DNA from: Candidatus Latescibacterota bacterium
Lineage (GTDB): Bacteria; Latescibacterota; UBA2968; UBA8231
Length of the DNA stretch: 64,000 bases
Direction of reading: 5' to 3'
NCBI GenBank assembly: GCA_965217585.1
Contig: OZ244561.1
Coordinates: 3,264,001 to 3,328,000, forward strand
The notes below the pieces were generated by a model, which was not told the DNA's origin, did not search any database, and saw nothing but the letters and a program-made list of their open reading frames with translations. Every line of letters begins with the position of its first letter. Positions within the stretch are counted from its first letter, which is position 1. Below are positions 2 through 15,203 of the stretch, in pieces. Position numbers and translations under genes: made by a program.

Positions 2-2020
2 GAAAGTGGTGTAAAAATACCAGTCAATTATTATGTATGGTCCGATGTTTTTACGTGTCCCGAGTGTGTTCTTGAATTCCCCTTTTTCCCTCATGGTATC
101 ATCCACCACGGTAATAAAGTAGAGACTCGTAAGAGTTTTTCTTGTCCGTCATGCGGTGCAGAACTGAATGTCCGAAAAGTGGAAAGAGTAATTGTTTATG
201 AGGGAAAGAAAAAACAGCTCGTTTGGGTGAATGCTGGTTCCGGTAGGAATCGAATAAGCAGAGCTCCTACAGAATACGATTTGTCTCTCGATAAGGAAAT
301 TTTCAATATAACTAGTACAGAATGGTATCCAGTTGAAGAGATAGACCCAGAAGGCTACTCGGCAAAGCTCGCTCAACTTGGTGACAAGGCAATTACGGAT
401 GTGTCTCGATTCTTGTCAAAGCGCAATCTCATTGTTTTCAGTGACTTATGGTCACGCATCAATGAGATTAAGGATGAATCACTCATGAATCTATGTAGAG
501 CAACTCTATCCTCTATATTCACGGTTGTATCAGAAAGGCAGGGCTATTTTGGCGGTGGTGGTGGTATGTCCGGCAACCTATATATGCCAATAGTTCGAAT
601 GGAGAAGAATATATTCGGTGTTTTGCGTAGAAAACTAAAAAAGCTTGAGGCTGCCGAGAAGAAAAAGCGAAATCAGGAAACGACTACTATCGTGACTACA
701 CAATCCCTCACAACCCTTACCGCTTTGCCCAACAATTCGATTGACTACGTCTATACCGATCCACCATTTGGGGCGAACATTATTTATTCAGAGATGAATC
801 TATTATTGGAAAGTTGGATTAAAGTGAAAACTAATAGATCCGATGAAGCAGTTATTGACGAAACTAGGAATAGAGAGTTTGAAGACTATGCATTATTAAT
901 GGGAGCGTGCTTCAGAGAATGTCACCGTGTACTCAAACCTGGTCGTTGGATGACCGTAGAGTTCCACAATACAATGGCAAGCGTATGGAACTTGATACAA
1001 ACAGCTATAGGTGAGAGCGGATTCGTTATTGCTCAAGTTGACGTATTCGACAAAGGTTCAACAACCATATTGGCAGATATTCGTCCAGGTGCAGTGAAAC
1101 AGGATTTGATTATCTCAGCATATAAACCCAATGGAGGACTTGAGCGGAGGTTTGAACTAGAATCAGGAACTGAGGACGGCGTCTGGGATTTTGTACGTAC
1201 TCATCTAAAGCAACTACCAGTCTTTGTTTCTAACAATGGTCAAGCCGAGGTCATTGCCGAGCGCCAGGACTTCCTGCTCTTTGACCGCATGGTTGCCTTT
1301 CATGTCCAGCGAGGGGTGACGGTTCCTTTGTCCGCTGCTGAGTTTTACGTCGGTCTAGGACAGCGATTTCCTTCACGTGACGGTATGTATTTCCTGCCCA
1401 ACCAAGCTGCCGAGTACGATAAGAAGCGAATGACGGTCAAGGAGGTTCTCCAACTTCAGCTTTTCGTCTCCGACGAAGCCTCGGCTATCCAGTGGCTTAA
1501 GCAGCAGCTCACCAAGAAACCTCAGACTTTTCAGGACATCCATCCTCAATTCCTGAAAGAGATCGGCGGCTGGCAAAAGCACGAGAAGCTGCCAGAACTG
1601 TCCGAAATGTTGGAGCAGAACTTCCTATCCTATGACGGCAAGGGCGAAGTGCCCAATCAGATTCACAGCTATCTTTCGTCGAACTTCAAGGAGCTACGCA
1701 ATCTGGCCAAGGACAACCCATCGCTTAAGGACAAGGCCAAGGATCGCTGGTATGTGCCCGACCCAAATAAGGCAGACAACTTGGAGAAGCTGCGCGAGAA
1801 GGCGCTGCTCAAGGAGTTCGAGGAGTACAAGCAGGCCAAGAAGAAGCTCAGGGTCTTCCGGCTGGAAGCTGTCCGTGCAGGCTTCAAAAAAGCCTATCAG
1901 GAACGCGACTACGCCACGATTATAGCGTTGGCCGAGAAAATCCCCAACAACGTCCTCGAAGAAGACCCAAAGCTGCTTTTGTGGTACGACCAAGCAGTAA
2001 CAAGAATGGGAGGTGAATAG
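2..2020 (+). CDS. pglX: BREX type-3 DNA methyltransferase PglXI (5'-truncated by window edge)
   Basis: Frame is open from base 2 (YVWSDVFTCPEC...CPSC Zn motifs upstream of the listed ORF); amino-MTase motif YTDPPF; conserved C-terminus (WYVPDPNKA.DLEKLREKALLKEF); pglZ and brxA follow. Confidence 0.85.
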   Translation, partial: ESGVKIPVNYYVWSDVFTCPECVLEFPFFPHGIIHHGNKVETRKSFSCPSCGAELNVRKVERVIVYEGKKKQLVWVNAGSGRNRISRAPTEYDLSLDKEIFNITSTEWYPVEEIDPEGYSAKLAQLGDKAITDVSRFLSKRNLIVFSDLWSRINEIKDESLMNLCRATLSSIFTVVSERQGYFGGGGGMSGNLYMPIVRMEKNIFGVLRRKLKKLEAAEKKKRNQETTTIVTTQSLTTLTALPNNSIDYVYTDPPFGANIIYSEMNLLLESWIKVKTNRSDEAVIDETRNREFEDYALLMGACFRECHRVLKPGRWMTVEFHNTMASVWNLIQTAIGESGFVIAQVDVFDKGSTTILADIRPGAVKQDLIISAYKPNGGLERRFELESGTEDGVWDFVRTHLKQLPVFVSNNGQAEVIAERQDFLLFDRMVAFHVQRGVTVPLSAAEFYVGLGQRFPSRDGMYFLPNQAAEYDKKRMTVKEVLQLQLFVSDEASAIQWLKQQLTKKPQTFQDIHPQFLKEIGGWQKHEKLPELSEMLEQNFLSYDGKGEVPNQIHSYLSSNFKELRNLAKDNPSLKDKAKDRWYVPDPNKADNLEKLREKALLKEFEEYKQAKKKLRVFRLEAVRAGFKKAYQERDYATIIALAEKIPNNVLEEDPKLLLWYDQAVTRMGGE

Positions 2021-2023
2021 CTA

Positions 2024-3931
2024 ATGATTACCAAATGGAATGTATCTAATTTCAAGTCGATTTGCGAGGAGACCGAATTAGCTCTTGGACCGCTAACAAT
2101 TTTCGCCGGTGCGAATAGTAGCGGCAAGAGTACGTTTATTCAATCCATTCTACTCATTGCTCAAACGCTAGCACATAAAGTTGATTCCAGATCGGTTGTT
2201 TTGAACGGTGCATTGATTAGCCTCGGTCAGTTTGACGATATGAAATCGAACGGCAGTGAATCGGATCAGATAACCATCAAATGCACTTGCCGTCCTATAT
2301 CTGAGCAGTACAGGCCATTAGCGAGCATGCCTCATCGTACCAGCTACTACGATCCGTGGCTCTCTCAGTTTCAGGAGATCGCTTGCGAGCTATCTTTTGA
2401 CGCCGATCCTGCAAGTTCCCAGCGGGATATATTTCAGATACGACCGCGACTTTTTGCAACGCAGTTATCCTGTACAGTCAGAGATGAAGATAATGTGGAC
2501 CAAAAGGCTGAAATCTTTATTCGCCATTCCGACAAGACGATCTCTGAAATCGATGGGATAGGTGCTGTCAATGAACTTGATGAGTCAGTACGCGCCAGCA
2601 TGGCGTACGAGGTCCGTTTTGATGATAGTTCTATGGAAGAGATGGAAGAGCAATACATGTCGGCAAAGCCTATAGGATGTGCTCTGCGTCATTTTCTTCC
2701 TGAGCAAATTACTTGCGGAATTGACACGATCAAAGAGGATGCTAATAGAATAGTTCATGTTCTGACGAGCAGTGGCCGAAAAACTGTTGGGTTTCAGCGT
2801 GTCATGAAGAGAAATATTTTTCTCTCCAAGGAAATAATTGCCATCTTGCGTCGTGTTCTCGGGAACACTATCGATTTTGATGGGACTTTCAATAATGAAC
2901 CCCAACAAGGGCTGTTACCGGGTATGGGTTTAGAGGGAATGAGAATCCGTACTTGGCATAAGAATTTTCTCAAACTGTCCGATAAAGACCGAGTGAAAGT
3001 TCAACGAGCACTGAGAGAACAGGATGATCTTTCCGAATTAATTTATGAGGCAATGAGAGCTTCCAATGTTTCGTCGTCTGAGTCCCACAGATTCATCCAA
3101 GTCAGTCCGCCTTACTTGATTGCTGAGGCCACAAATTACTTAGATGACTTTTTTTCCTCATCGTTAAAATACCTCGGACCTTTACGAGATGCTCCAAAGC
3201 CTTTATATCCTCTTACTCCAGCAGCCAATCCGTATGATGTCGGTCTGCGTGGGGAGCACACGGCCTCAATCCTTGATCGACATAAAAACAAAAAAATCGA
3301 GTATATACCTTCAGCCAATTTCGAATCCTCGCTCATAAATCGTAAAATGGTCACCAGAAGCCTTGAAGTCGCAGTGGTTGACTGGCTTCAATATCTTGGT
3401 GTCGCCAAGTCTGTAAATAGTCGAGACCGAGGCAAGCTAGGGCATGAATTGAAAGTGGCACTTTCCGACTCAGATGGCACTCACGACCTTACGCATGTCG
3501 GCGTTGGTGTAAGCCAGGTTCTTCCTATCTTGGTTATGGGCCTCTTGGCTGATACCGACACAACCCTAGTGTTTGAGCAGCCAGAACTACATCTACATCC
3601 AAAGGTTCAGACCTTGCTAGGAGATTTCTTTCTCTCTATGGCATTATGTAATAAACAATGTATCGTCGAAACCCACAGTGAGTACCTTATTGACCGACTA
3701 AGATTCCGAATTGCTGCGGCATATCCAGAAAGCGAATTGAACAACTTGGCAAAAATCTACTTTGTCGAAAAGCCAGCTCAAAACTCATCCTTCCGGGAAG
3801 TAGTGATTAACGAATATGGTGCTATTTCCGACTGGCCCGAAGGCTTTTTTGACCAATCACAGAAGCAGGCGGAGGAAATTCTTCGTGCTGCTGCTAAAAA
3901 GAGAAAAGCCAGTCGGAAGGGAGACCGATGA
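2024..3931 (+). CDS. ABC/AAA_21-type ATPase with DUF3696-like C-terminus
   Basis: Walker A GANSSGKS; signature VGVGVSQ; Walker B/D-loop FEQPELHLHP; H-loop ETHSE; C-terminal DWPEGFFDQ. Confidence 0.85.
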   Translation: MITKWNVSNFKSICEETELALGPLTIFAGANSSGKSTFIQSILLIAQTLAHKVDSRSVVLNGALISLGQFDDMKSNGSESDQITIKCTCRPISEQYRPLASMPHRTSYYDPWLSQFQEIACELSFDADPASSQRDIFQIRPRLFATQLSCTVRDEDNVDQKAEIFIRHSDKTISEIDGIGAVNELDESVRASMAYEVRFDDSSMEEMEEQYMSAKPIGCALRHFLPEQITCGIDTIKEDANRIVHVLTSSGRKTVGFQRVMKRNIFLSKEIIAILRRVLGNTIDFDGTFNNEPQQGLLPGMGLEGMRIRTWHKNFLKLSDKDRVKVQRALREQDDLSELIYEAMRASNVSSSESHRFIQVSPPYLIAEATNYLDDFFSSSLKYLGPLRDAPKPLYPLTPAANPYDVGLRGEHTASILDRHKNKKIEYIPSANFESSLINRKMVTRSLEVAVVDWLQYLGVAKSVNSRDRGKLGHELKVALSDSDGTHDLTHVGVGVSQVLPILVMGLLADTDTTLVFEQPELHLHPKVQTLLGDFFLSMALCNKQCIVETHSEYLIDRLRFRIAAAYPESELNNLAKIYFVEKPAQNSSFREVVINEYGAISDWPEGFFDQSQKQAEEILRAAAKKRKASRKGDR

Positions 3932-4956
3932 GTAGTTTGCCTGGTGTGACAATCGATGCAAGCGTCCTTGCCGTCCCTCATTTCTCCTGTACCAAAGATG
4001 ATGCGTTCCAGTATGTGGATACCTTACTGGACTGGAGCAAGCTACTTGATGAGACGTGGGTAGTCACCTACATGAGTGAAAGGGTTTCAGAGGTTCTTGA
4101 CAATGATGGACTTTATCCACTTCGAGGTCATCTTAGAGAACTCTTTAATACACACGGAATCGTCGAGTACGACGTAAATACTGTCGCCACAATTACAGAG
4201 AGATTGCTGACGCTCACTCCATCTTTTGAAGCCCGTTATCAAGTCGAAGACGTTTTATCTGACAACCTTGAAACGGAGCCAGATATTATTGGTCTCACAA
4301 CACATGATGGTCTTCGGTCCGTGATTGCAGTTTTGAGAAAGTATTGTTCGCAGCCTCTGGGGGGACATTCCCTCGTACTAAGAAAAGCCCCAAAACAAGT
4401 CGTTCAAGTCAGAACACAAATTCACGATCTTGAACATGATAGAGATGATCTTCCAGATCTACCCTGTCCTCCTGAATTTTTTGAAGGCGATGTACTGGTA
4501 TGCGACGATTTTAGAGGCTTGATAGAGTGTCTCGACGAATCGGTAATACTTGTTGATGCCTCCGACGATTTTGGAATTGAACTTTCAATCCGAATCGCCT
4601 TGTTCAAACAGGCTCTTTCCCAAAGTAAGGATCCAGACTGGGAAACCATCCAAGTCCCAAGTATCGGTTCTAAATTTCGTAAAACTTGCCAACAATTGTG
4701 CAATAATACGGGGAATTCTTTGCCACCAAAAATACTCCGCTCCATAGTCGAAACAATTAAAGGACTGAACAAGGACGCTGTTCACGCACTCAGGACTGGG
4801 CGGGGTGGCAATGATCCACAGCGTACACGCGGTTTTGATAAAGCTCAGCGACGTGATATAGATCAAGAATTTCATCTCCACTATTGGGACTGTGCCGACG
4901 GCCGTATCGAGTTAGCATCTGTCGTTTATCACAATGATTTTTCGATACCGGAATAA
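3928..4956 (+). CDS. Hypothetical protein, putative effector/toxin partner of the ATPase
   Basis: 342-aa ORF with ATGA overlap to the ATPase; N-terminal IDASVL (PIN-like start); C-terminal RRDIDQEFHLHYW...IELASVVYH resembles a RelE/BECR-like fold (inference). Confidence 0.65.
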   Translation: MSSLPGVTIDASVLAVPHFSCTKDDAFQYVDTLLDWSKLLDETWVVTYMSERVSEVLDNDGLYPLRGHLRELFNTHGIVEYDVNTVATITERLLTLTPSFEARYQVEDVLSDNLETEPDIIGLTTHDGLRSVIAVLRKYCSQPLGGHSLVLRKAPKQVVQVRTQIHDLEHDRDDLPDLPCPPEFFEGDVLVCDDFRGLIECLDESVILVDASDDFGIELSIRIALFKQALSQSKDPDWETIQVPSIGSKFRKTCQQLCNNTGNSLPPKILRSIVETIKGLNKDAVHALRTGRGGNDPQRTRGFDKAQRRDIDQEFHLHYWDCADGRIELASVVYHNDFSIPE

Positions 4957-4967
4957 GACACGAATCA

Positions 4968-6962
4968 ATGGATAGCTGGCGAGACGCCATCCTGAACGAA
5001 TTTGTTCCCAAGGTCAGCAGGCTCACCTTAGTCGCCGACCCAGACGGCCTGTTGGCCGAAGAGAAACTGGCACTGGAGTTGCGTAGGCGCGGGTTTGATC
5101 TCATCGAATTCAAAGATCCGGTCGAGTTCAGATATGTTTATGAATCGAAATATCGTTCGCTCTGGGATCGCGGCGAGTATACGGATCTGGTGGTCATTCT
5201 TCGCCTGCAAGATACCGAACTAACATCGTTGCCCTACGACCTCCTGAAAGCCGGAAGGAAACTATCCTTCAATCTTGGCAAGCTCTTCCCCAACCTGAGC
5301 TATCCAGTCGTCCAGAAGTTGGACCTAAGACTCCTTGACTCTCTGTTTGCTGCAAAGCGCAGATTGCCGCCAGACCGCCTAGGCGATAACACCACCAAGG
5401 ACTTCATTCTTAGCCAAGTATTCGGCATCACCGCAGAGCAGATTAACAACGAGGTGGAACTTCTAAGCACCTTGCTCCGCCTGCATTACGGCAAAATCCA
5501 AGTTCCTCACGAACTGGTTGATCGGCTTGTGCAGGTACTTCGGCGGCAATATGCGTTTCATTCATGGCCTTTAGATGAAATCGTGCCAGACGGCGAAGAG
5601 TTCTTTGCCTTCTTGCAGGAGCGCTGGCCGGTGTTCCTAAACAGACTTGGCAAAGCCGAGCGGATCGGAGAAGGTCAGCGTGAACATAAACTCAAGTATG
5701 GGGGGCCTGCCCTTCTGCCATTCGACCACCAAAATATCAAAATCTACATCGACAATCTGTTCGTCGAAGGAATACTTTTTCCTGTTCAAGCAGCTAACCT
5801 TGATGTGGATGCAAGTTCGTGGATTCGTTGCGGAGTTGTCGAAGCCGATGCAGACGATGACGAGGTACGTATTTCCCGTCTGTTTGAACTCATTGAGCAA
5901 AAGCTACCGACAGTAGAATCTCGCTATGAGGACTGGACGGACCTTGCGCTAAAATGGGCCGAACTCTCTGCCTTGATCCATTATGGAAGCAGCAGTACAC
6001 ACCGATCCCAATGGCGAGAGATAGGCGATGCGTTGAACGAGACCTTTGCCACCTGGCTGAGGGAGCACTACGCCAGCCTTATTACTCTGCCACCAATCCG
6101 TCCCGCGATGGGACATCACCTAGCACGACGGTTGGCTCGCGATATGGAAGACTCCGGCGGAAAGCGCATTGCATTGATTGTGGTCGATGGCCTTTCCCTC
6201 GATCAGTGGGTGACTGTACGCCAGATTCTACACTGGCAAAACAGTGATCTCATAATTCGGGAGTCCGCGACTTTTACTTGGATTCCGACGCTAACTTCCG
6301 TATCCCGGCAGGCGATCTTTTTCGGCAAATCGCCGCAGTTTTTTCCTGCATCCATTAACTCGACCGACAGCGAAGAAAAGCTCTGGCAGCAATTCTGGAC
6401 GGATAACGGTCTTTCTCGTCCTGAGATCGCCTATAAGCGCGGATTAGGCAGTGGTGACATAAGTAAGGATCTCGATGAGACGGTTAATCCCGGCCAGACC
6501 AAGGCCGTGGGCTTGGTTGTGGATATGGTCGATAAGATAATGCACGGTATGCAGCTAGGGGCAGTGGGTATGCACGGTCAGGTCGCGCAGTGGTGCCAAG
6601 GCGGATATCTTGGGAAGCTCATCGACTATCTATTGGATCACGACTATGATGTATGGCTGACATCCGATCACGGCAACATCGAATGCGAGGGCAAAGGGCG
6701 GCCTACTGAGGGAGTCCTCGCGGAAATACGCGGTGCGAGAGCTCGTGTGTACCAAACGCCCGAACTCCGCTCACAAGTAGCATCCGCCTTTACATCGGCC
6801 CGCGAGTGGGAGCCGGTCGGCCTACCCGACAATTACTTTCCCCTGTTAGCTGGCGGCCGAGATGCGTTTGTGAATCCCGGCAATTCAATAGTTGGTCATA
6901 GCGGAATCACCCTTGAGGAAGTCATCGTGCCCTTAGTGAGATTTGAAAGGAGAACGCGGTGA
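4968..6962 (+). CDS. pglZ: BREX-3 phosphatase PglZ
   Basis: Type-3 N-terminus (WRDAILNEF...LTLVADPDGLL); alkaline-phosphatase-superfamily motifs VVDGL, PTLTSVSRQA, DKIMHG, TSDHG, HSGITLEEVIVP. Confidence 0.9.
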   Translation: MDSWRDAILNEFVPKVSRLTLVADPDGLLAEEKLALELRRRGFDLIEFKDPVEFRYVYESKYRSLWDRGEYTDLVVILRLQDTELTSLPYDLLKAGRKLSFNLGKLFPNLSYPVVQKLDLRLLDSLFAAKRRLPPDRLGDNTTKDFILSQVFGITAEQINNEVELLSTLLRLHYGKIQVPHELVDRLVQVLRRQYAFHSWPLDEIVPDGEEFFAFLQERWPVFLNRLGKAERIGEGQREHKLKYGGPALLPFDHQNIKIYIDNLFVEGILFPVQAANLDVDASSWIRCGVVEADADDDEVRISRLFELIEQKLPTVESRYEDWTDLALKWAELSALIHYGSSSTHRSQWREIGDALNETFATWLREHYASLITLPPIRPAMGHHLARRLARDMEDSGGKRIALIVVDGLSLDQWVTVRQILHWQNSDLIIRESATFTWIPTLTSVSRQAIFFGKSPQFFPASINSTDSEEKLWQQFWTDNGLSRPEIAYKRGLGSGDISKDLDETVNPGQTKAVGLVVDMVDKIMHGMQLGAVGMHGQVAQWCQGGYLGKLIDYLLDHDYDVWLTSDHGNIECEGKGRPTEGVLAEIRGARARVYQTPELRSQVASAFTSAREWEPVGLPDNYFPLLAGGRDAFVNPGNSIVGHSGITLEEVIVPLVRFERRTR

Positions 6963-7729
6963 TAGGCAAGCGACATCAAGCCATTGGAGTCAAGCAAGTC
7001 ATCCGCTACGAGTGGATGCAAAAGGCTGCTCAACTACAGCTCGCCGGACTTGACGCTAAGTCAATCCGCCAAGAACTGCACGAATTTCTAACTGATCGAA
7101 AAGGCAGCGGATCTAACGAGGAGCGCAGTAAGTATACTCGGAGCTTCGTCGTTAATAACCTGATGAATATTTGGGTCTCTCCAGTCCCCGAATTAGTTGC
7201 TTTTAGAGACTCAGCTTTAGTCCTTCTCCGCACACATCTGTCAATAGAAGTGGCCGTTCACTGGGGAATGATCTCGGCAGTCTATCCTTTCTGGTTCAAC
7301 GTAGCGTGGCAGACAGGACGCCTATTGACACTGCAAGACCAAGTCACCCAAACGCAAATCGTCCATCGCCTCAAAGAGCAGTATGGCGACCGGGCCACCG
7401 TAAGCCGGTATGCGCGTTACGTCATTCGCTCCTTCGTTGCTTGGGGAATCCTAAGAGAAGCCGCGGCTAAAGGTTGCTACGAAAAATCAGCACCGATGAA
7501 CGTGGTCGATCAGGATCTGGTCATGCTGATGTTTGAGGCCGCTTTGCACACGACCCCCGAAGGCCAAGGAGAGCTGAGCTTATTGCTGAAGCATCCAGCG
7601 TTTTTTCCGTTCCAGCTTTCGGTAATAACAGGTGCCTTCATTGCTCAGCACAGCGACCGAATCGATGTGATCCGATATGGACTAGACGATGAGATGCTGA
7701 AGATGTGTACCGCGCTGAAGCATGGCTGA
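6959..7729 (+). CDS. brxA: BREX-3 BrxA-like protein
   Basis: GTGA overlap with pglZ; 256 aa; motifs HWGM...YPF, EQYGDRATV.R..RYV.RSF..WG and HPAFFPF; canonical position after pglZ. Confidence 0.7.
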   Translation: MIGKRHQAIGVKQVIRYEWMQKAAQLQLAGLDAKSIRQELHEFLTDRKGSGSNEERSKYTRSFVVNNLMNIWVSPVPELVAFRDSALVLLRTHLSIEVAVHWGMISAVYPFWFNVAWQTGRLLTLQDQVTQTQIVHRLKEQYGDRATVSRYARYVIRSFVAWGILREAAAKGCYEKSAPMNVVDQDLVMLMFEAALHTTPEGQGELSLLLKHPAFFPFQLSVITGAFIAQHSDRIDVIRYGLDDEMLKMCTALKHG

Positions 7730-8150
7730 ACAGTTCGACCTATCCACTAGCCCCAGCCCCAGCCAGCGCCTAATTTTTGCCCTATTGGGCATTGGCCAGT
7801 TGGTGTTGGGTACCATTGCTTTCCAGCGCGGCGGCTTCGCGTATGGACTCGCGGTGCTCGCCGGCGGGATCGCGGTGTTCTGCGCGGCGGCCTTCTTCGT
7901 TCACCGCCTCCACCGGCGCTTGGTCTGGCTAGGACCGGAGGGCGTGACCGTCGAAGAGGGCCTGTTTGGCCGGCAGACCTTGGCGTGGGCCGAGGTCAAA
8001 AAGGTGAGTGTGTCGCCGGCCGCGACGGTGTTCCACGCGGCGACGGGCGAAGATATTGTCCTCCCCAACACGGCCGGCCAATCGCCGGATATCGCCCCGT
8101 TTTTAGCGCGGTTGCGCGCCTTGGTAGACGAGCACGAGCTGCGCGGTTAG
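7722..8150 (+). CDS. Small membrane protein (2 TM plus PH-like domain)
   Basis: Two hydrophobic helices followed by a beta-rich segment (GVTVEEGLFGRQTLAWAEV); GC-rich host-like codons. Confidence 0.6.
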   Translation: MAEQFDLSTSPSPSQRLIFALLGIGQLVLGTIAFQRGGFAYGLAVLAGGIAVFCAAAFFVHRLHRRLVWLGPEGVTVEEGLFGRQTLAWAEVKKVSVSPAATVFHAATGEDIVLPNTAGQSPDIAPFLARLRALVDEHELRG

Positions 8151-8161
8151 AGTTGTTTGCC

Positions 8162-8611
8162 CTATTCGGGTGCAGACCCGTTCTGCTTAGGTTGGGCGGC
8201 GGCGAGGTGGGTTTCGATTTTGCCGACGATCTCAGCGGCGGAGTTTTGCTTGGTCACCGTTTCCAGCAGAGTGTGGTCTTGGGCGTTGATGAGTAGGACG
8301 AGGCCGGTTTTGTTGTTGGCCTTGAAGTGGTCTTCTACGTCGAGGGCCGCGGCAAGTAGGCGGGCTTGGGATGTCAACGTTGAGTCGGTGACGTCCAATT
8401 GGACGAAGAGGACGGGTTGATCGGCCACCCCGGCTTGGACTTCTTCGAGGATTGGTACGAGGGCCGTGCAGGAGCCACACCAATCGGCGTGGACTTTGAT
8501 CACGTACAGGGCCGGATCGCCTTCGCCTTCTACCTGGACGGTGCCAGCGAGGGTGGGGGCCGGAGCTAGTAAAAAAGCTAGGGCGGTGAGCGTGAGGACG
8601 TATTTCAGCAT
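8162..8611 (-). CDS. Exported thioredoxin-like protein
   Basis: Signal peptide; HADWCGSC CxxC motif. Confidence 0.8.
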   Translation of the reverse strand: MLKYVLTLTALAFLLAPAPTLAGTVQVEGEGDPALYVIKVHADWCGSCTALVPILEEVQAGVADQPVLFVQLDVTDSTLTSQARLLAAALDVEDHFKANNKTGLVLLINAQDHTLLETVTKQNSAAEIVGKIETHLAAAQPKQNGSAPE

Positions 8612-8828
8612 GATTTGCTCCTATTTAGAAAGGTTGTGGTGTGGTCGGGTCAAAGTCAGTCCGTCGAAAGACGTCCTGACTCGTCGGAAGGTTCCTCGAT
8701 CTTGGGGTAATTCTCCATTGCATTCAACCGCGGCTAGGCTATGAGCGCCAACACTTGCTCGTGTGGCAGGATGGGAAAGGTAAAGTCAGCGCACGCTAGT
8801 TTGAGCTGCATAAATCCTCCATTCTTTG

Positions 8829-12566: not shown

Positions 12567-13637
12567 TAGGACTTACGCAGTTGGATAGTTTAGGATAAGA
12601 TAGAAGCTACTCCCCCTCCGCCGCGAGCCAGTCCGATGAACCCAGCCAAGTGTGCAGACCACGACTACATCCACTTCCTGATCGCCGCTCAGTGCGCCTT
12701 CAGTTGTACTGAGGCCGCCCGCTGTCATCCTGAAGGGGGCCCTACGCCATCCCATGACGCCTTCACGCGCCTGCTCACAAGACAGCCTCCCGATACCGAG
12801 GCGTTGTGGCGAGAGACGCAGGGACTGGTCACCCTTCAGGGCGGCGTGTTGGCTCTGGACGATTCCACCTTGGACAAGCCCTATGCCAAGCGGATCGAAC
12901 TGGTGACGCGCCATTGGAGCGGCAAACATCACCGGGTGGTCTTGGGCATCAATCTCATAAGTATGGTCTGGTCGGACGGCCTCGCTTGCATTCCCTGCGA
13001 CTTCCGCGTCTATGACAAGCCGATCGGGGGCCACAACAAGAACGAGCACTTCCGGGCGATGCTGGCCAGTGCCCAAGCGCGCGGCTTTCAGCCCGAGTGC
13101 GTGGTGTTCGATAGCTGGTATGCTTCCCTCGACAACCTCAAGCGGATTCGCGCCTACGATTGGTCTTGGCTGACGCGCCTCAAGGCCAACAGACAGGTCA
13201 ACCCCGATGGGAGCGGCAACGTGGCGATCGGCTCTGTTGCCATCGAACCGGAAGGCCGGCGGGTGCATCTCAAGGGCTATGGGTTCATCCAGGTGTTTCG
13301 GACGGTCTCGGCAAACGGAGACGCGCAATACTGGGCAACCAACGACCTGGAGATGGCTGTCAGCCAGTTTGAGGCGTGGTCCAAGCGGGCGTGGTCCATT
13401 GAGACCTACCACCGAGGCCTCAAGCAGTGTTGCGGCGTCGAGCAGGCGCAGGTTCGGTCGGCACGGGCGCAGATGAACCATATCGCGTTGTCGATTCGCG
13501 CCTTCGTGCGGTTGGAGGTGCATAGACTCCAAACCGGTGTCAGTTGGTATGAAGCCAAAAGGAACATCATCCGAGAGGCTGTCCGGCTGTATCTGCAACG
13601 ACCACTGCACAGGCTCAACTCAACTGCGTAAGTCCTA
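12567..13637 (+). mobile_element. IS701-family insertion sequence
   Basis: TIRs TAGGACTTACGCAGTTG / CAACTGCGTAAGTCCTA; 5-bp TSD TAGAT. Confidence 0.9.
12636..13631 (+). CDS. IS701-family transposase
   Basis: LDDSTLDKPY, FDSWY, RAWSIETYHRGLKQ DDE motifs. Confidence 0.92.
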   Translation: MNPAKCADHDYIHFLIAAQCAFSCTEAARCHPEGGPTPSHDAFTRLLTRQPPDTEALWRETQGLVTLQGGVLALDDSTLDKPYAKRIELVTRHWSGKHHRVVLGINLISMVWSDGLACIPCDFRVYDKPIGGHNKNEHFRAMLASAQARGFQPECVVFDSWYASLDNLKRIRAYDWSWLTRLKANRQVNPDGSGNVAIGSVAIEPEGRRVHLKGYGFIQVFRTVSANGDAQYWATNDLEMAVSQFEAWSKRAWSIETYHRGLKQCCGVEQAQVRSARAQMNHIALSIRAFVRLEVHRLQTGVSWYEAKRNIIREAVRLYLQRPLHRLNSTA

Positions 13638-13733: not shown

Positions 13734-15068
13734 ATGAATAGAGAGCATTTCTTGGACGATCTTGAGAAGTATCCGGTTGAGGGTGGAGATATTCCACCGA
13801 TCCTAGATCGAAGCGACGGGGGCTATGCATCTTGGCACATCAGGCTCCTTGCATGTCTTCAACGCGAACAGATGATATGGAGAAGCCAACCGGAGTACCC
13901 CTACCTTTCCGTCGACGCTGAAGCACTGAACCGGTGCCACTCAACCATCGGCAGGGCCGTTCTACTCGCTCATGAGTTCTTGTTGCAGAACCTAAGCCGA
14001 AAAGAACTAGGCCGGATTATGGCCGCTGGCATAGTCGGTGGCGGGGTATATGCAGGCATTACACCGACATCAGACTTCTTACCGGAAGGGGCAGCCAACC
14101 CCAATGCCCACTGCCTCTGCGCCTTCAACCATCCTCTATACATCAGATCTACACCGTTCATGGCAGAGGGTATCTGGCTCCTCGTCCTAGACGAAGACCA
14201 ACCTTATCAGTACGCTGTAGCGGATATAGATAGCTCTGAGTCGCACTCATTCCCTCTGTTGAACTCCCTGCCGTTGGGACCATATAGGGAGCTCCAGTCT
14301 CACTTTCGTGAGCGGTATAGACAGAGCCGAAAACCACTCAATGCAGATGAGCTTGCAGAGTTGGATGAATTCATCAGTACTGTTTTCGAGGCTAACCAAA
14401 AGGTCTTGAAAGAGGCTGAGCACTACCACCTGCGTCACAAGGACAAAAAGTCCCGGTACACCCATCCAGCGCCATGGCTCACACCGTTTGGTAGGCTGGT
14501 GCATGACGAGGAAGGTGAGCCCAGCATCGAGCACAACCTCGCACTCCTTCACTGCACGAAGGCTATCGAGGAGTTCAACTGTGCCAAGAACGCGGAGGAC
14601 AGCGGGAACGATGGGCGAAAAGTGATTCATGGAGCATACTGCATAATCGCCTTGGCAGCTTTTATTGAGGCGGCTGCTAACCGAGCGTACTTCGTTTCAA
14701 AGGGTTCACATGTCGTCTCGACTGATAACCAGACTTCGACCGCCCGCCTTCTCTCTGAAGCCGAGCAAATAGCACATAGACGGGACGATGCCCCACAGCG
14801 ACGGTTTAAACGGTTGAAACAGAGTTCCGAAGAATACAGAGCACTAGAGGAAGTGCGTCAGATTCGGAATAAGCTGATTCATGCAACTGAAGCTGCTGTC
14901 CCGATCGATCAAGGAGTGGGAGCATCAGAGCTTGTCGCCTGTCTCACGGTTGAGAATTGCAGGCGTCTGCTGTCTCTTGTGAGGAAGGCCCTAGTTCACA
15001 TTGTTGAACAGGTTCCTGAGATCGGTTTGCAGGTCCGACTCGACGAACAAGGTGAGATGGCTAGGTGA
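13734..15068 (+). CDS. Hypothetical protein with C-terminal HEPN-like motif
   Basis: AAFIEAAAN plus RNKLIH (Rx4H); first gene downstream of the attI-like copy 1. Confidence 0.6.
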   Translation: MNREHFLDDLEKYPVEGGDIPPILDRSDGGYASWHIRLLACLQREQMIWRSQPEYPYLSVDAEALNRCHSTIGRAVLLAHEFLLQNLSRKELGRIMAAGIVGGGVYAGITPTSDFLPEGAANPNAHCLCAFNHPLYIRSTPFMAEGIWLLVLDEDQPYQYAVADIDSSESHSFPLLNSLPLGPYRELQSHFRERYRQSRKPLNADELAELDEFISTVFEANQKVLKEAEHYHLRHKDKKSRYTHPAPWLTPFGRLVHDEEGEPSIEHNLALLHCTKAIEEFNCAKNAEDSGNDGRKVIHGAYCIIALAAFIEAAANRAYFVSKGSHVVSTDNQTSTARLLSEAEQIAHRRDDAPQRRFKRLKQSSEEYRALEEVRQIRNKLIHATEAAVPIDQGVGASELVACLTVENCRRLLSLVRKALVHIVEQVPEIGLQVRLDEQGEMAR

Positions 15069-15203
15069 GTGGGAGGTCCCGTGAGAGCATCAAGTGGGTG
15101 ACCTCATATGCAATTGAACGCGACGGACTTATGGGAATACAGAGTTGACCGTGTTCGCCTTTCTGGTTCAATTGGTTCAAAAACGTGGAAGAATCCCGTC
15201 TGT

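Follow-up and report, generated by a model that had tools for sequence, protein, structure and literature searches.

Several described phage-defence systems pair an ABC ATPase with a nuclease. In Menshen, the effector NsnC combines a PIN-like N-terminus with a ribonuclease (RNase) of the BECR/RelE fold, is encoded right after the ATPase NsnB, and has YafQ and PIN proteins as structural relatives; NsnB itself departs from the ABC consensus in having GxG for SGG, a Walker B motif other than DE, and Arg for the Q-loop Gln (PMC12065111). HEC-03, an ABC ATPase with a PIN protein, protects E. coli from phage, for which both genes are required (10.1101/2024.01.29.577857). Inside bacteriophage exclusion (BREX) loci, OLD-ABC ATPases are reported from 594 taxa with PIN endoRNases (in place of TOPRIM) and other nucleases as partners (PMC12839542), and BREX-embedded cargo in general has already been published (10.1101/2024.01.29.577857). 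Here we analyse a pair of adjacent genes, encoding an ABC ATPase and a 342-amino-acid (aa) effector, within a BREX locus of a Candidatus Latescibacterota genome. The pair lies at the start of a 64-kb stretch (G000:C1:3264001-3328000, hereafter the window), which was analysed together with the upstream 18 kb of contiguous genome sequence. It is probably a self-contained, ATPase-gated RNase module, Menshen-like but lacking NsnA, that is carried as cargo in a slot of type-3 BREX and likely provides defence of the abortive-infection type.

The window opens with five plus-strand open reading frames (ORFs; 2-2020, open at its 5' end, 2024-3931, 3928-4956, 4968-6962, and 6959-7729). A gap of 3 bp separates the first two, the second and third overlap by 4 bp (ATGA), the third and fourth are 11 bp apart, and the fourth and fifth overlap by 4 bp (GTGA). 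The first encodes the C-terminal 672 of the 887 aa of the BrxXI methyltransferase PglXI (PADLOC PglXI, 3e-274); its full ORF, rebuilt from genome sequence, starts upstream of the window at L002:17357. The second and third are the ATPase and effector genes, followed by pglZ (664 aa; PADLOC PDLC02558, 2.5e-304, end to end) and brxA (256 aa; PADLOC BrxA, 8.1e-112). PglZ scored 843.9 bits with the NCBIfam model BREX_PglZ_3, for which the cut-off is 250, and brxF and brxC (PADLOC BrxC, 2045 bits) lie upstream on the same contig. A type-3-clade PglZ together with PglXI, BrxC, and BrxA identifies the locus as type-3 BREX, as the initial annotation had proposed from the sequence of the window. Both the ORF list and PADLOC also agree with its description of pglXI, the ATPase gene, the 342-aa ORF, pglZ, and brxA as tightly packed and without an SNF2 helicase, and inspection of the upstream contig, which it had recommended, found brxF and brxC there but not brxHII.

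The 635-aa ATPase (2024..3931, +) matched the Pfam families AAA_15 (7.8e-24), AAA_21 (3.2e-17), and DUF3696 (5e-13), the last forming a C-terminal tail. Among PADLOC models, NsnB gave the best match (5.3e-76), ahead of HEC-03B (2.2e-51), PDC-M55A (2.2e-42), and AriA (2.7e-28). The invariant motifs comprise a Walker A (G29-x-NSSGKS36), GxGxSQ at 493-498, a Walker B (EQPE, 518-521), the H-loop residue H551, and R388. Judged from the alignment, the GxG, the EQ in Walker B, and the invariant R388 agree with the motif variants of NsnB, with R388 presumably placed at the Q-loop. The proteins of solved structure nearest to the ATPase in sequence are an OLD-family nuclease, PtuA, and AriA, and its relatives are named "DUF3696 domain-containing protein" in public sources. 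An AlphaFold2 model of the protein was of moderate quality (predicted local distance difference test, pLDDT, 74.7); searched with Foldseek, it matched Rad50/SMC heads best (1.8e-10), with PtuA among the matches. The ATPase is probably the sensor and gate of the module.

The 342-aa effector (3928..4956, +) matched no model in Pfam, PADLOC, or NCBIfam, including no PADLOC NsnC model at E <= 0.01 and no HEC-03A, and PDB sequences compared with a profile of the effector family gave 0 matches at E <= 10. Of 2889 candidates from a word-indexed search, 664 were homologous to the effector at E <= 0.001. The best 120 were 68-88% identical to the effector and almost all 349 aa long, none of them with a Pfam domain, and an exhaustive search gave 607 clusters at 50% identity, nearly all full length. 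An AlphaFold2 model built from 99 diverse members reached a pLDDT of 95.4 and a predicted template modelling score of 0.91. Structure comparison with VIA-align assigned aa 240-339 of this model (4645..4944, +) to the RelE/YafQ/YoeB/ParE (BECR) fold: the best match was the toxin YafQ (4q2u_B; Z 10.8, 85/90 residues, root-mean-square deviation 2.5), and every one of the 16 chains at Z >= 8 was a RelE/ParE-superfamily toxin. The modelled domain has the alpha-helical start and subsequent antiparallel sheet of that fold, and most of it was matched. Residues 3-201 (3934..4530, +) matched Chp1 PIN-like, Nmd4, EST1A PIN, VapC, and SMG5 PIN structures at Z 5.0-6.1; this PIN-like assignment is tentative because Z values of 5-6 fall in the range in which the tool warns that a match may be generic. 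Foldseek returned nothing for the effector model at E <= 0.001, its best matches being YafQ-type toxins (0.023). In the ESM Atlas the nearest clusters were labelled "hypothetical protein", and the cluster at rank 10 carried YoeB_toxin in 15% of its members, which we treat as a lead only. The assignment of the effector therefore rests on its predicted fold, as neither the PADLOC NsnC and HEC-03A models nor any PDB sequence matched it.

Conservation was scored for each residue over 99 effector-family sequences, and the strongest conservation falls in the RelE-like domain, where R308 and W320 are 100% conserved, H318 is 99% conserved, and H286, R289, E328, and H335 are conserved in at least 95% of sequences; R301 is also listed among the conserved residues of this domain. 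The acidic residues of the PIN-like part are D10 (82%), E101 (93%), D108 (77% D/E), and E169 (83% D/E), and D203 of the effector is D/E in 76% of sequences (D alone in 72/99 rows). The RelE/YafQ-fold domain is probably an RNase toxin and the PIN-like domain probably an adaptor that binds the ATPase tail. Co-folding of one full-length copy of each protein, run without controls, scored 0.24 against a mark of 0.32; the published Menshen models used a 4:2 assembly (PMC12065111). The initial annotation had proposed a two-gene module of an ABC ATPase and a toxin with a PIN-like/RelE-like partner, and the family matches of the ATPase and the predicted folds of the effector support both proposals.

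To survey the neighbourhoods of effector homologs, as had been suggested for this pair, we used a sample chosen by the effector, with one genome per species, which yielded 18 loci in at least eight phyla (68-83% identity). In 17 of these 18 genome loci, the gene of the effector homolog is immediately preceded by that of a DUF3696 ATPase, so that the pairing is kept; the contig of the 18th starts inside the effector gene. The same holds for 10/10 pair-bearing metagenome loci and for L063, L123, and L124, and in 4 further loci the gene directly after that of a DUF3696 ATPase encodes a partner with only 21-24% identity to the effector. Within the phylum of the window, the effector-family profile matched 6/168 genomes. 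One of these matches, in G080, is a distant member of 352 aa (E 1.5e-30) encoded right after a 618-aa DUF3696 ATPase; the two genes are flanked by genes of haem biosynthesis and one for heparinase, and the locus contains neither BREX nor a DUF262 gene. Downstream of brxA in L063 (8328-13069), tandem NsnB-type ATPases of 687 and 516 aa are followed by a 352-aa effector relative (30% identity), a three-gene form without DUF262. The arrangements in G080 and L063 indicate that the ATPase-effector pair is a unit of its own.

The gene for NsnA (ParB-DUF262), the upstream partner in Menshen, is absent from the operon among both ORFs and Pfam matches, the upstream stretch included. The genome holds 9 DUF262 (PF03235) matches, the nearest about 80 kb from the pair. 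One DUF262 (GmrSD_N) match, at G000:C1:3348037-3348677, 20 kb past the window end, is split over adjacent ORFs of 169 and 138 aa. Pair-bearing loci have no DUF262 gene between pglXI and brxHII or pglZ; the ORFs in this interval are the two genes themselves, plus a short ORF from a brxHII stub in L009, L010, L017, and L084.

The position of the pair is itself conserved. In 13/13 genome loci with enough flank, the order is brxF-brxC-pglXI-ATPase-effector-...-pglZ-brxA. To obtain a sample blind to the pair, we selected metagenome loci by PglZ, taking the best 80 of 472 confirmed relatives (PglZ 65-71% identical to that of the window, near-duplicates included), of which 52 contained both the end of pglXI and the start of pglZ. 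The interval between pglXI and brxHII was filled in all 52, always on the plus strand, and across all loci in which both borders of the slot were resolved, plus-strand cargo followed pglXI in 66/66. The ATPase-effector pair occupied 10 of the 52 metagenome loci. Four loci carried the same ATPase (about 70% identical) with the 21-24% identical partner, here 352-357 aa long, and three (L034, L075, and L085) carried a 467-477-aa DUF3696 ATPase with a HEC-03A-type 176-aa protein, accompanied in two of them by an RNA ligase. The other occupants were Ppl (934 aa), PDC-S19/DUF3644, Gabija (OLD-TOPRIM + UvrD), AAA_21 with DUF4276, an AriA/AriB-like module, AAA with subtilase, a 924-aa ATPase with Schlafen, AIPR, DUF3800, HATPase with STAS and PIN, and single proteins of 500-509 aa with little or no annotation. 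These last (L023:5594-7111, L040:5479-7008, L094:5521-7023, and relatives) have no Pfam family and one weak PADLOC match only (PD-T7-3, 1.6e-9), and they are candidate unnamed defence genes.

The borders of the slot are sharp at the DNA level. Between the pair-bearing L007 and loci with other cargo, pglXI is conserved only in its final ~450 bp (about 90% identity), up to the stop codon, and identity of about 92% resumes at the start of brxHII. In L057, identity of 96.6% extends over the ATPase gene almost to its 3' end and is followed by a different partner, so that only the effector has been exchanged. On a quick IQ-TREE phylogeny of PglZ (65 rows), cores separated by branch lengths of only 0.002-0.02 carry different cargo, and the distribution of the pair needs 11 gains or losses, of which branches with good support require at least 6. 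A Thiobacillus genome, an Aerolutibacter genome, and a metagenome contig (L007, L011, and L030) share one and the same PglZ sequence, which shows very recent horizontal spread of the BREX-3 element. This turnover of cargo on near-identical cores identifies the position as a cargo slot of a mobile BREX-3 element, with the pair as one cassette among many, and the view of the initial annotation that such genes are nested defence genes proved the right frame for a slot that holds many defence modules. A second, rarer insertion point is seen in L016, where a 381-aa gene of metallo-beta-lactamase fold (13938-15083) lies between brxHII and pglZ. In L124 (G059), the N- and C-terminal PglXI matches are about 2.2 kb apart (4252-8694), which suggests that the target-recognition region of this methyltransferase is much larger or interrupted.

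The helicase gene brxHII is reported in 77% of type-3 BREX (PMC12839542), and a type-3 operon without it is thus a known reduced form. The locus of the window has no helicase ORF between pglXI and pglZ and no brxHII remnant, and no BrxHII ortholog was found in the whole genome, where the best PDLC02500 match scored 377 bits, covered the helicase core only, and lay about 1.5 Mb away; the true BrxHII of L007 scored 1653 bits. Six of the 13 genome loci encode a full BrxHII of 964-985 aa (1608-1653 bits; SNF2, Helicase_C) between the effector and pglZ. The same arrangement of pair and full brxHII is present in G059, a further genome of the window's class, and intact brxHII follows the pair in 9/10 pair-bearing metagenome loci. 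A full brxHII stands directly before pglZ in 48/52 metagenome loci, and 12 of the 66 resolved loci are without one. In eight loci (L009, L010, L015, L017, L075, L084, L086, and L089) a stub remains that joins the first 29-171 to the last 33-86 codons, leaving ORFs of 87-154 aa. The break points of the stubs differ, which indicates independent internal deletions. No trace is left in the window, in L003 and L019 (its two closest relatives; clade support 100%), or in L020.

The initial annotation had suggested that the pair stands in place of BrxHII or may replace it functionally. This part is not supported, because the pair lies upstream of intact brxHII in relatives and the stubs record deletion: the pair is located upstream of the former brxHII site, not in its place, and pglZ begins 11 bp after the effector because brxHII was lost in this lineage. 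The same annotation named two findings that would count against it, brxHII just upstream and a match of the pair to an already described system. The former was not seen; the latter was, since the pair falls under the Menshen NsnB/NsnC, HEC-03, and OLD-ABC plus PIN kinds. The pair is a passenger in the operon and not a stand-in for the helicase.

Menshen, PARIS, Septu, and HEC-03 offer analogies for how such a module might work. The effector would be bound by an ATPase oligomer, via the DUF3696 tails and the PIN-like domain, and its RNase would be kept silent. A phage cue, possibly an anti-BREX or anti-restriction protein, would be sensed by the large ATPase inserts and would alter ATP binding or hydrolysis, whereupon the RNase would be freed or activated and would cut RNA, so that translation would stop. 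That embedded modules fire once a phage disables the host system has been proposed in both 10.1101/2024.01.29.577857 and PMC12839542.

The state of the island bears on whether the module is still in use. GC content is 41-51% in the locus and 58-65% in the flanks. The brxF gene (L002:13030-13497; G000:C1:3259030-3259497) contains an in-frame TAA (L002:13279-13281) at a position that is CAA or CAG in 5/5 aligned relatives; both pieces match PADLOC BrxF (4.4e-29 and 1.6e-16), and the TTG at 13030 has no ATG, GTG, or TTG start upstream of it. The remaining operon genes are intact, both ORFs of the pair included. The stop codon in brxF and the loss of brxHII suggest that BREX is reduced here and possibly inactive.

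Several points weigh against reading the pair as a self-contained Menshen-like defence cassette. The island could be in decay and the pair out of use. The identity of the effector is based on a predicted fold without a sequence-level family match, the PIN-like Z scores may reflect only a common arrangement, and the ATPase model is of moderate quality. The defining sensor of Menshen, NsnA, is absent here, and an anti-BREX trigger would be pure analogy. The slot frequencies were counted in the best 80 of 472 matches, and the genome sample was picked via the effector itself.

Other explanations of the pair were weighed against the same evidence. One of them treats it as an integral part of BREX-3 that has assumed the function of BrxHII. 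This would fit the window locus and its relatives L003 and L019, all of which carry the pair and no trace of brxHII. Among metagenome loci, DUF3696-ATPase cargo occurs in 3/4 without full brxHII and in 14/48 with it (Fisher one-sided p = 0.097), which is a weak trend among loci that are related and not independent. We nevertheless regard this takeover as quite improbable, given the many loci in which the pair sits beside intact brxHII, the brxHII-less loci that hold other cargo (e.g., AAA with subtilase in L086), the unrelated modules that replace the pair in near-identical cores, the distant pair that stands alone outside BREX in G080, and the lack of any helicase domain in an ABC ATPase and an RNase. 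Another relation to BREX is conceivable, in which the cargo is an obligatory, interchangeable output or sensor arm of BREX-3. The slot is filled in 66/66 loci, and its cargo may therefore be more than a passenger; pairs without NsnA would then be triggered by the BREX core, e.g., by BrxC or PglXI bound to unmodified DNA, instead of by a ParB-DUF262 sensor. BrxHII would thereby be dispensable, which would explain its repeated deletion. We consider this arm unlikely.

The effector has the predicted fold of type II toxin-antitoxin toxins, the two genes overlap by 4 bp, and the BREX-3 element is mobile, as the identical PglZ sequences show; the pair could on these grounds be mainly an addiction module that stabilises the island, with the ATPase as antitoxin and without phage sensing. 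Against this, the closest characterised relatives of the ATPase, in Menshen and HEC-03, serve phage defence (PMC12065111; 10.1101/2024.01.29.577857), known defence systems such as Gabija, Ppl, and PARIS-like modules are among the other occupants of the slot, and a 635-aa ATPase with large inserts exceeds what an antitoxin needs, so that we give the addiction module a low probability, slightly below that of the BREX arm. It is very improbable that the pair belongs to a canonical three-part Menshen whose NsnA (ParB-DUF262) is encoded elsewhere and acts in trans: the nine DUF262 matches in the genome would allow it, but none is adjacent, no pair-bearing locus has a DUF262 gene in its slot, and the stand-alone pair in G080 is also without one. 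A further possibility is a variant of the preferred reading rather than its competitor, namely that the PIN-like domain is a working nuclease, alone or alongside the RelE-like domain. D10 lies at the end of strand 1, the place of the canonical first PIN aspartate, the acidic residues are partly conserved, and some Menshen effector PIN domains are argued to keep the active-site constellation (10.64898/2026.08.28.747851, a 2026 preprint). However, no acidic position is invariant (72-93%), all residues conserved at 97-100% lie in the RelE-like domain (R308, W320, H318, R289, E328, and H335), and the Menshen paper finds PIN-like domains inactive (PMC12065111); we hold an active PIN-like domain to be a minor possibility, ahead of the other alternatives. 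The preferred reading remains an ATPase-gated RNase module carried as cargo.

Two further genes lie at the edges of the island. A 142-aa bacterial PH-domain gene (7722..8150, +; Pfam bPH_6, 1.1e-5) overlaps brxA by 8 bp; among the 18 genome and 80 metagenome loci, its relatives (84-89% identity) occur only in L003 and L019, and it is a lineage-specific addition to the operon. The other, a 421-aa ORF on the minus strand (L002:10384-11649) some 1.4 kb ahead of the BREX island, matches Cas12f/TnpB-type models (1.4e-55) and, from these matches, is probably an IS200/IS605-type TnpB by the left border.

Part of this picture is already in print, namely OLD-ABC ATPases with PIN and other nucleases in BREX and type-3 loci without BrxHII. 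Literature term searches, which covered passages of papers with locus supplements outside their scope, found neither the effector family nor an NsnB/NsnC pair lacking NsnA, and likewise neither the always-filled, bounded slot after pglXI nor the brxHII stubs. The analysis names a widespread, unannotated protein family and gives a testable mechanism for it. The always-filled, sharply bounded slot of mobile type-3 BREX can be mined for more defence genes, and the repeated internal deletion of brxHII raises the question of how far type-3 BREX needs its helicase.

Compared with PARIS (AriA-AriB) and the OLD-ABC "backup effectors" (PMC12839542), the pair likewise comprises an ABC ATPase that would gate a nuclease toxin inside BREX. 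The TOPRIM/DUF4435 protein AriB is absent here, and the AriA match of the ATPase is weaker than its NsnB match. Membership in PARIS was rejected, as neither Pfam nor PADLOC gave an AriB/TOPRIM match and the predicted fold of the effector is PIN-like plus RelE-like. RelE/BECR effectors have 0 occurrences in the main text of PMC12839542.

HEC-03 (Payne et al., preprint 10.1101/2024.01.29.577857) resembles the present pair in being a two-gene system nested within a different defence system, the gene for a DUF3696-type ABC ATPase preceding that for a PIN-type effector, although HEC-03B matched the ATPase more weakly than NsnB did. The HEC-03 effector is a small VapC-like PIN protein (159-position model), whereas the effector here has 342 aa and an additional RelE-fold domain that holds its best-conserved residues. 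A true HEC-03A match was found in the 176-aa cargo gene of L034 (6.3e-25) and none in the 342-aa effector. Membership in HEC-03 was rejected because the HEC-03A model was unmatched and a RelE domain is added. With the toxins RelE, YafQ, YoeB, and ParE, the effector shares the predicted fold of aa 240-339 (Z 8-10.8 over the 16 toxins) and a conserved His/Arg set, with no match at the sequence level. Type II toxins pair with a small antitoxin, whereas the domain here is fused behind a 235-aa N-terminal region and has an ATPase as partner.

The closest described system is Menshen (NsnA-NsnB-NsnC; Millman et al. 2022, PMC12065111). Its loci were defined and collected by NsnA (ParB-DUF262), which is encoded upstream of NsnB, whereas the present pair is without NsnA; canonical Menshen was rejected, since no NsnA gene was found in the operon or in pair-bearing relatives. 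The ATPase, at 635 aa, has much larger inserts than the NsnB model of 345 positions, and the effector matches no PADLOC NsnC model. In other respects the two agree. The ATPase is of the NsnB type with DUF3696 and appears to carry the same motif variants, and the effector has, by its predicted fold, the architecture of NsnC, with YafQ as best structural relative in both. The gene order from ATPase to effector is the same, and effectors are swapped behind a conserved ATPase in Menshen, as in L057 here. Menshen is often linked to BREX, and the present pair lies inside BREX. From this comparison, the ParB-DUF262 sensor seems not to be needed for the ATPase-effector half of Menshen to occur, and probably not for it to function.

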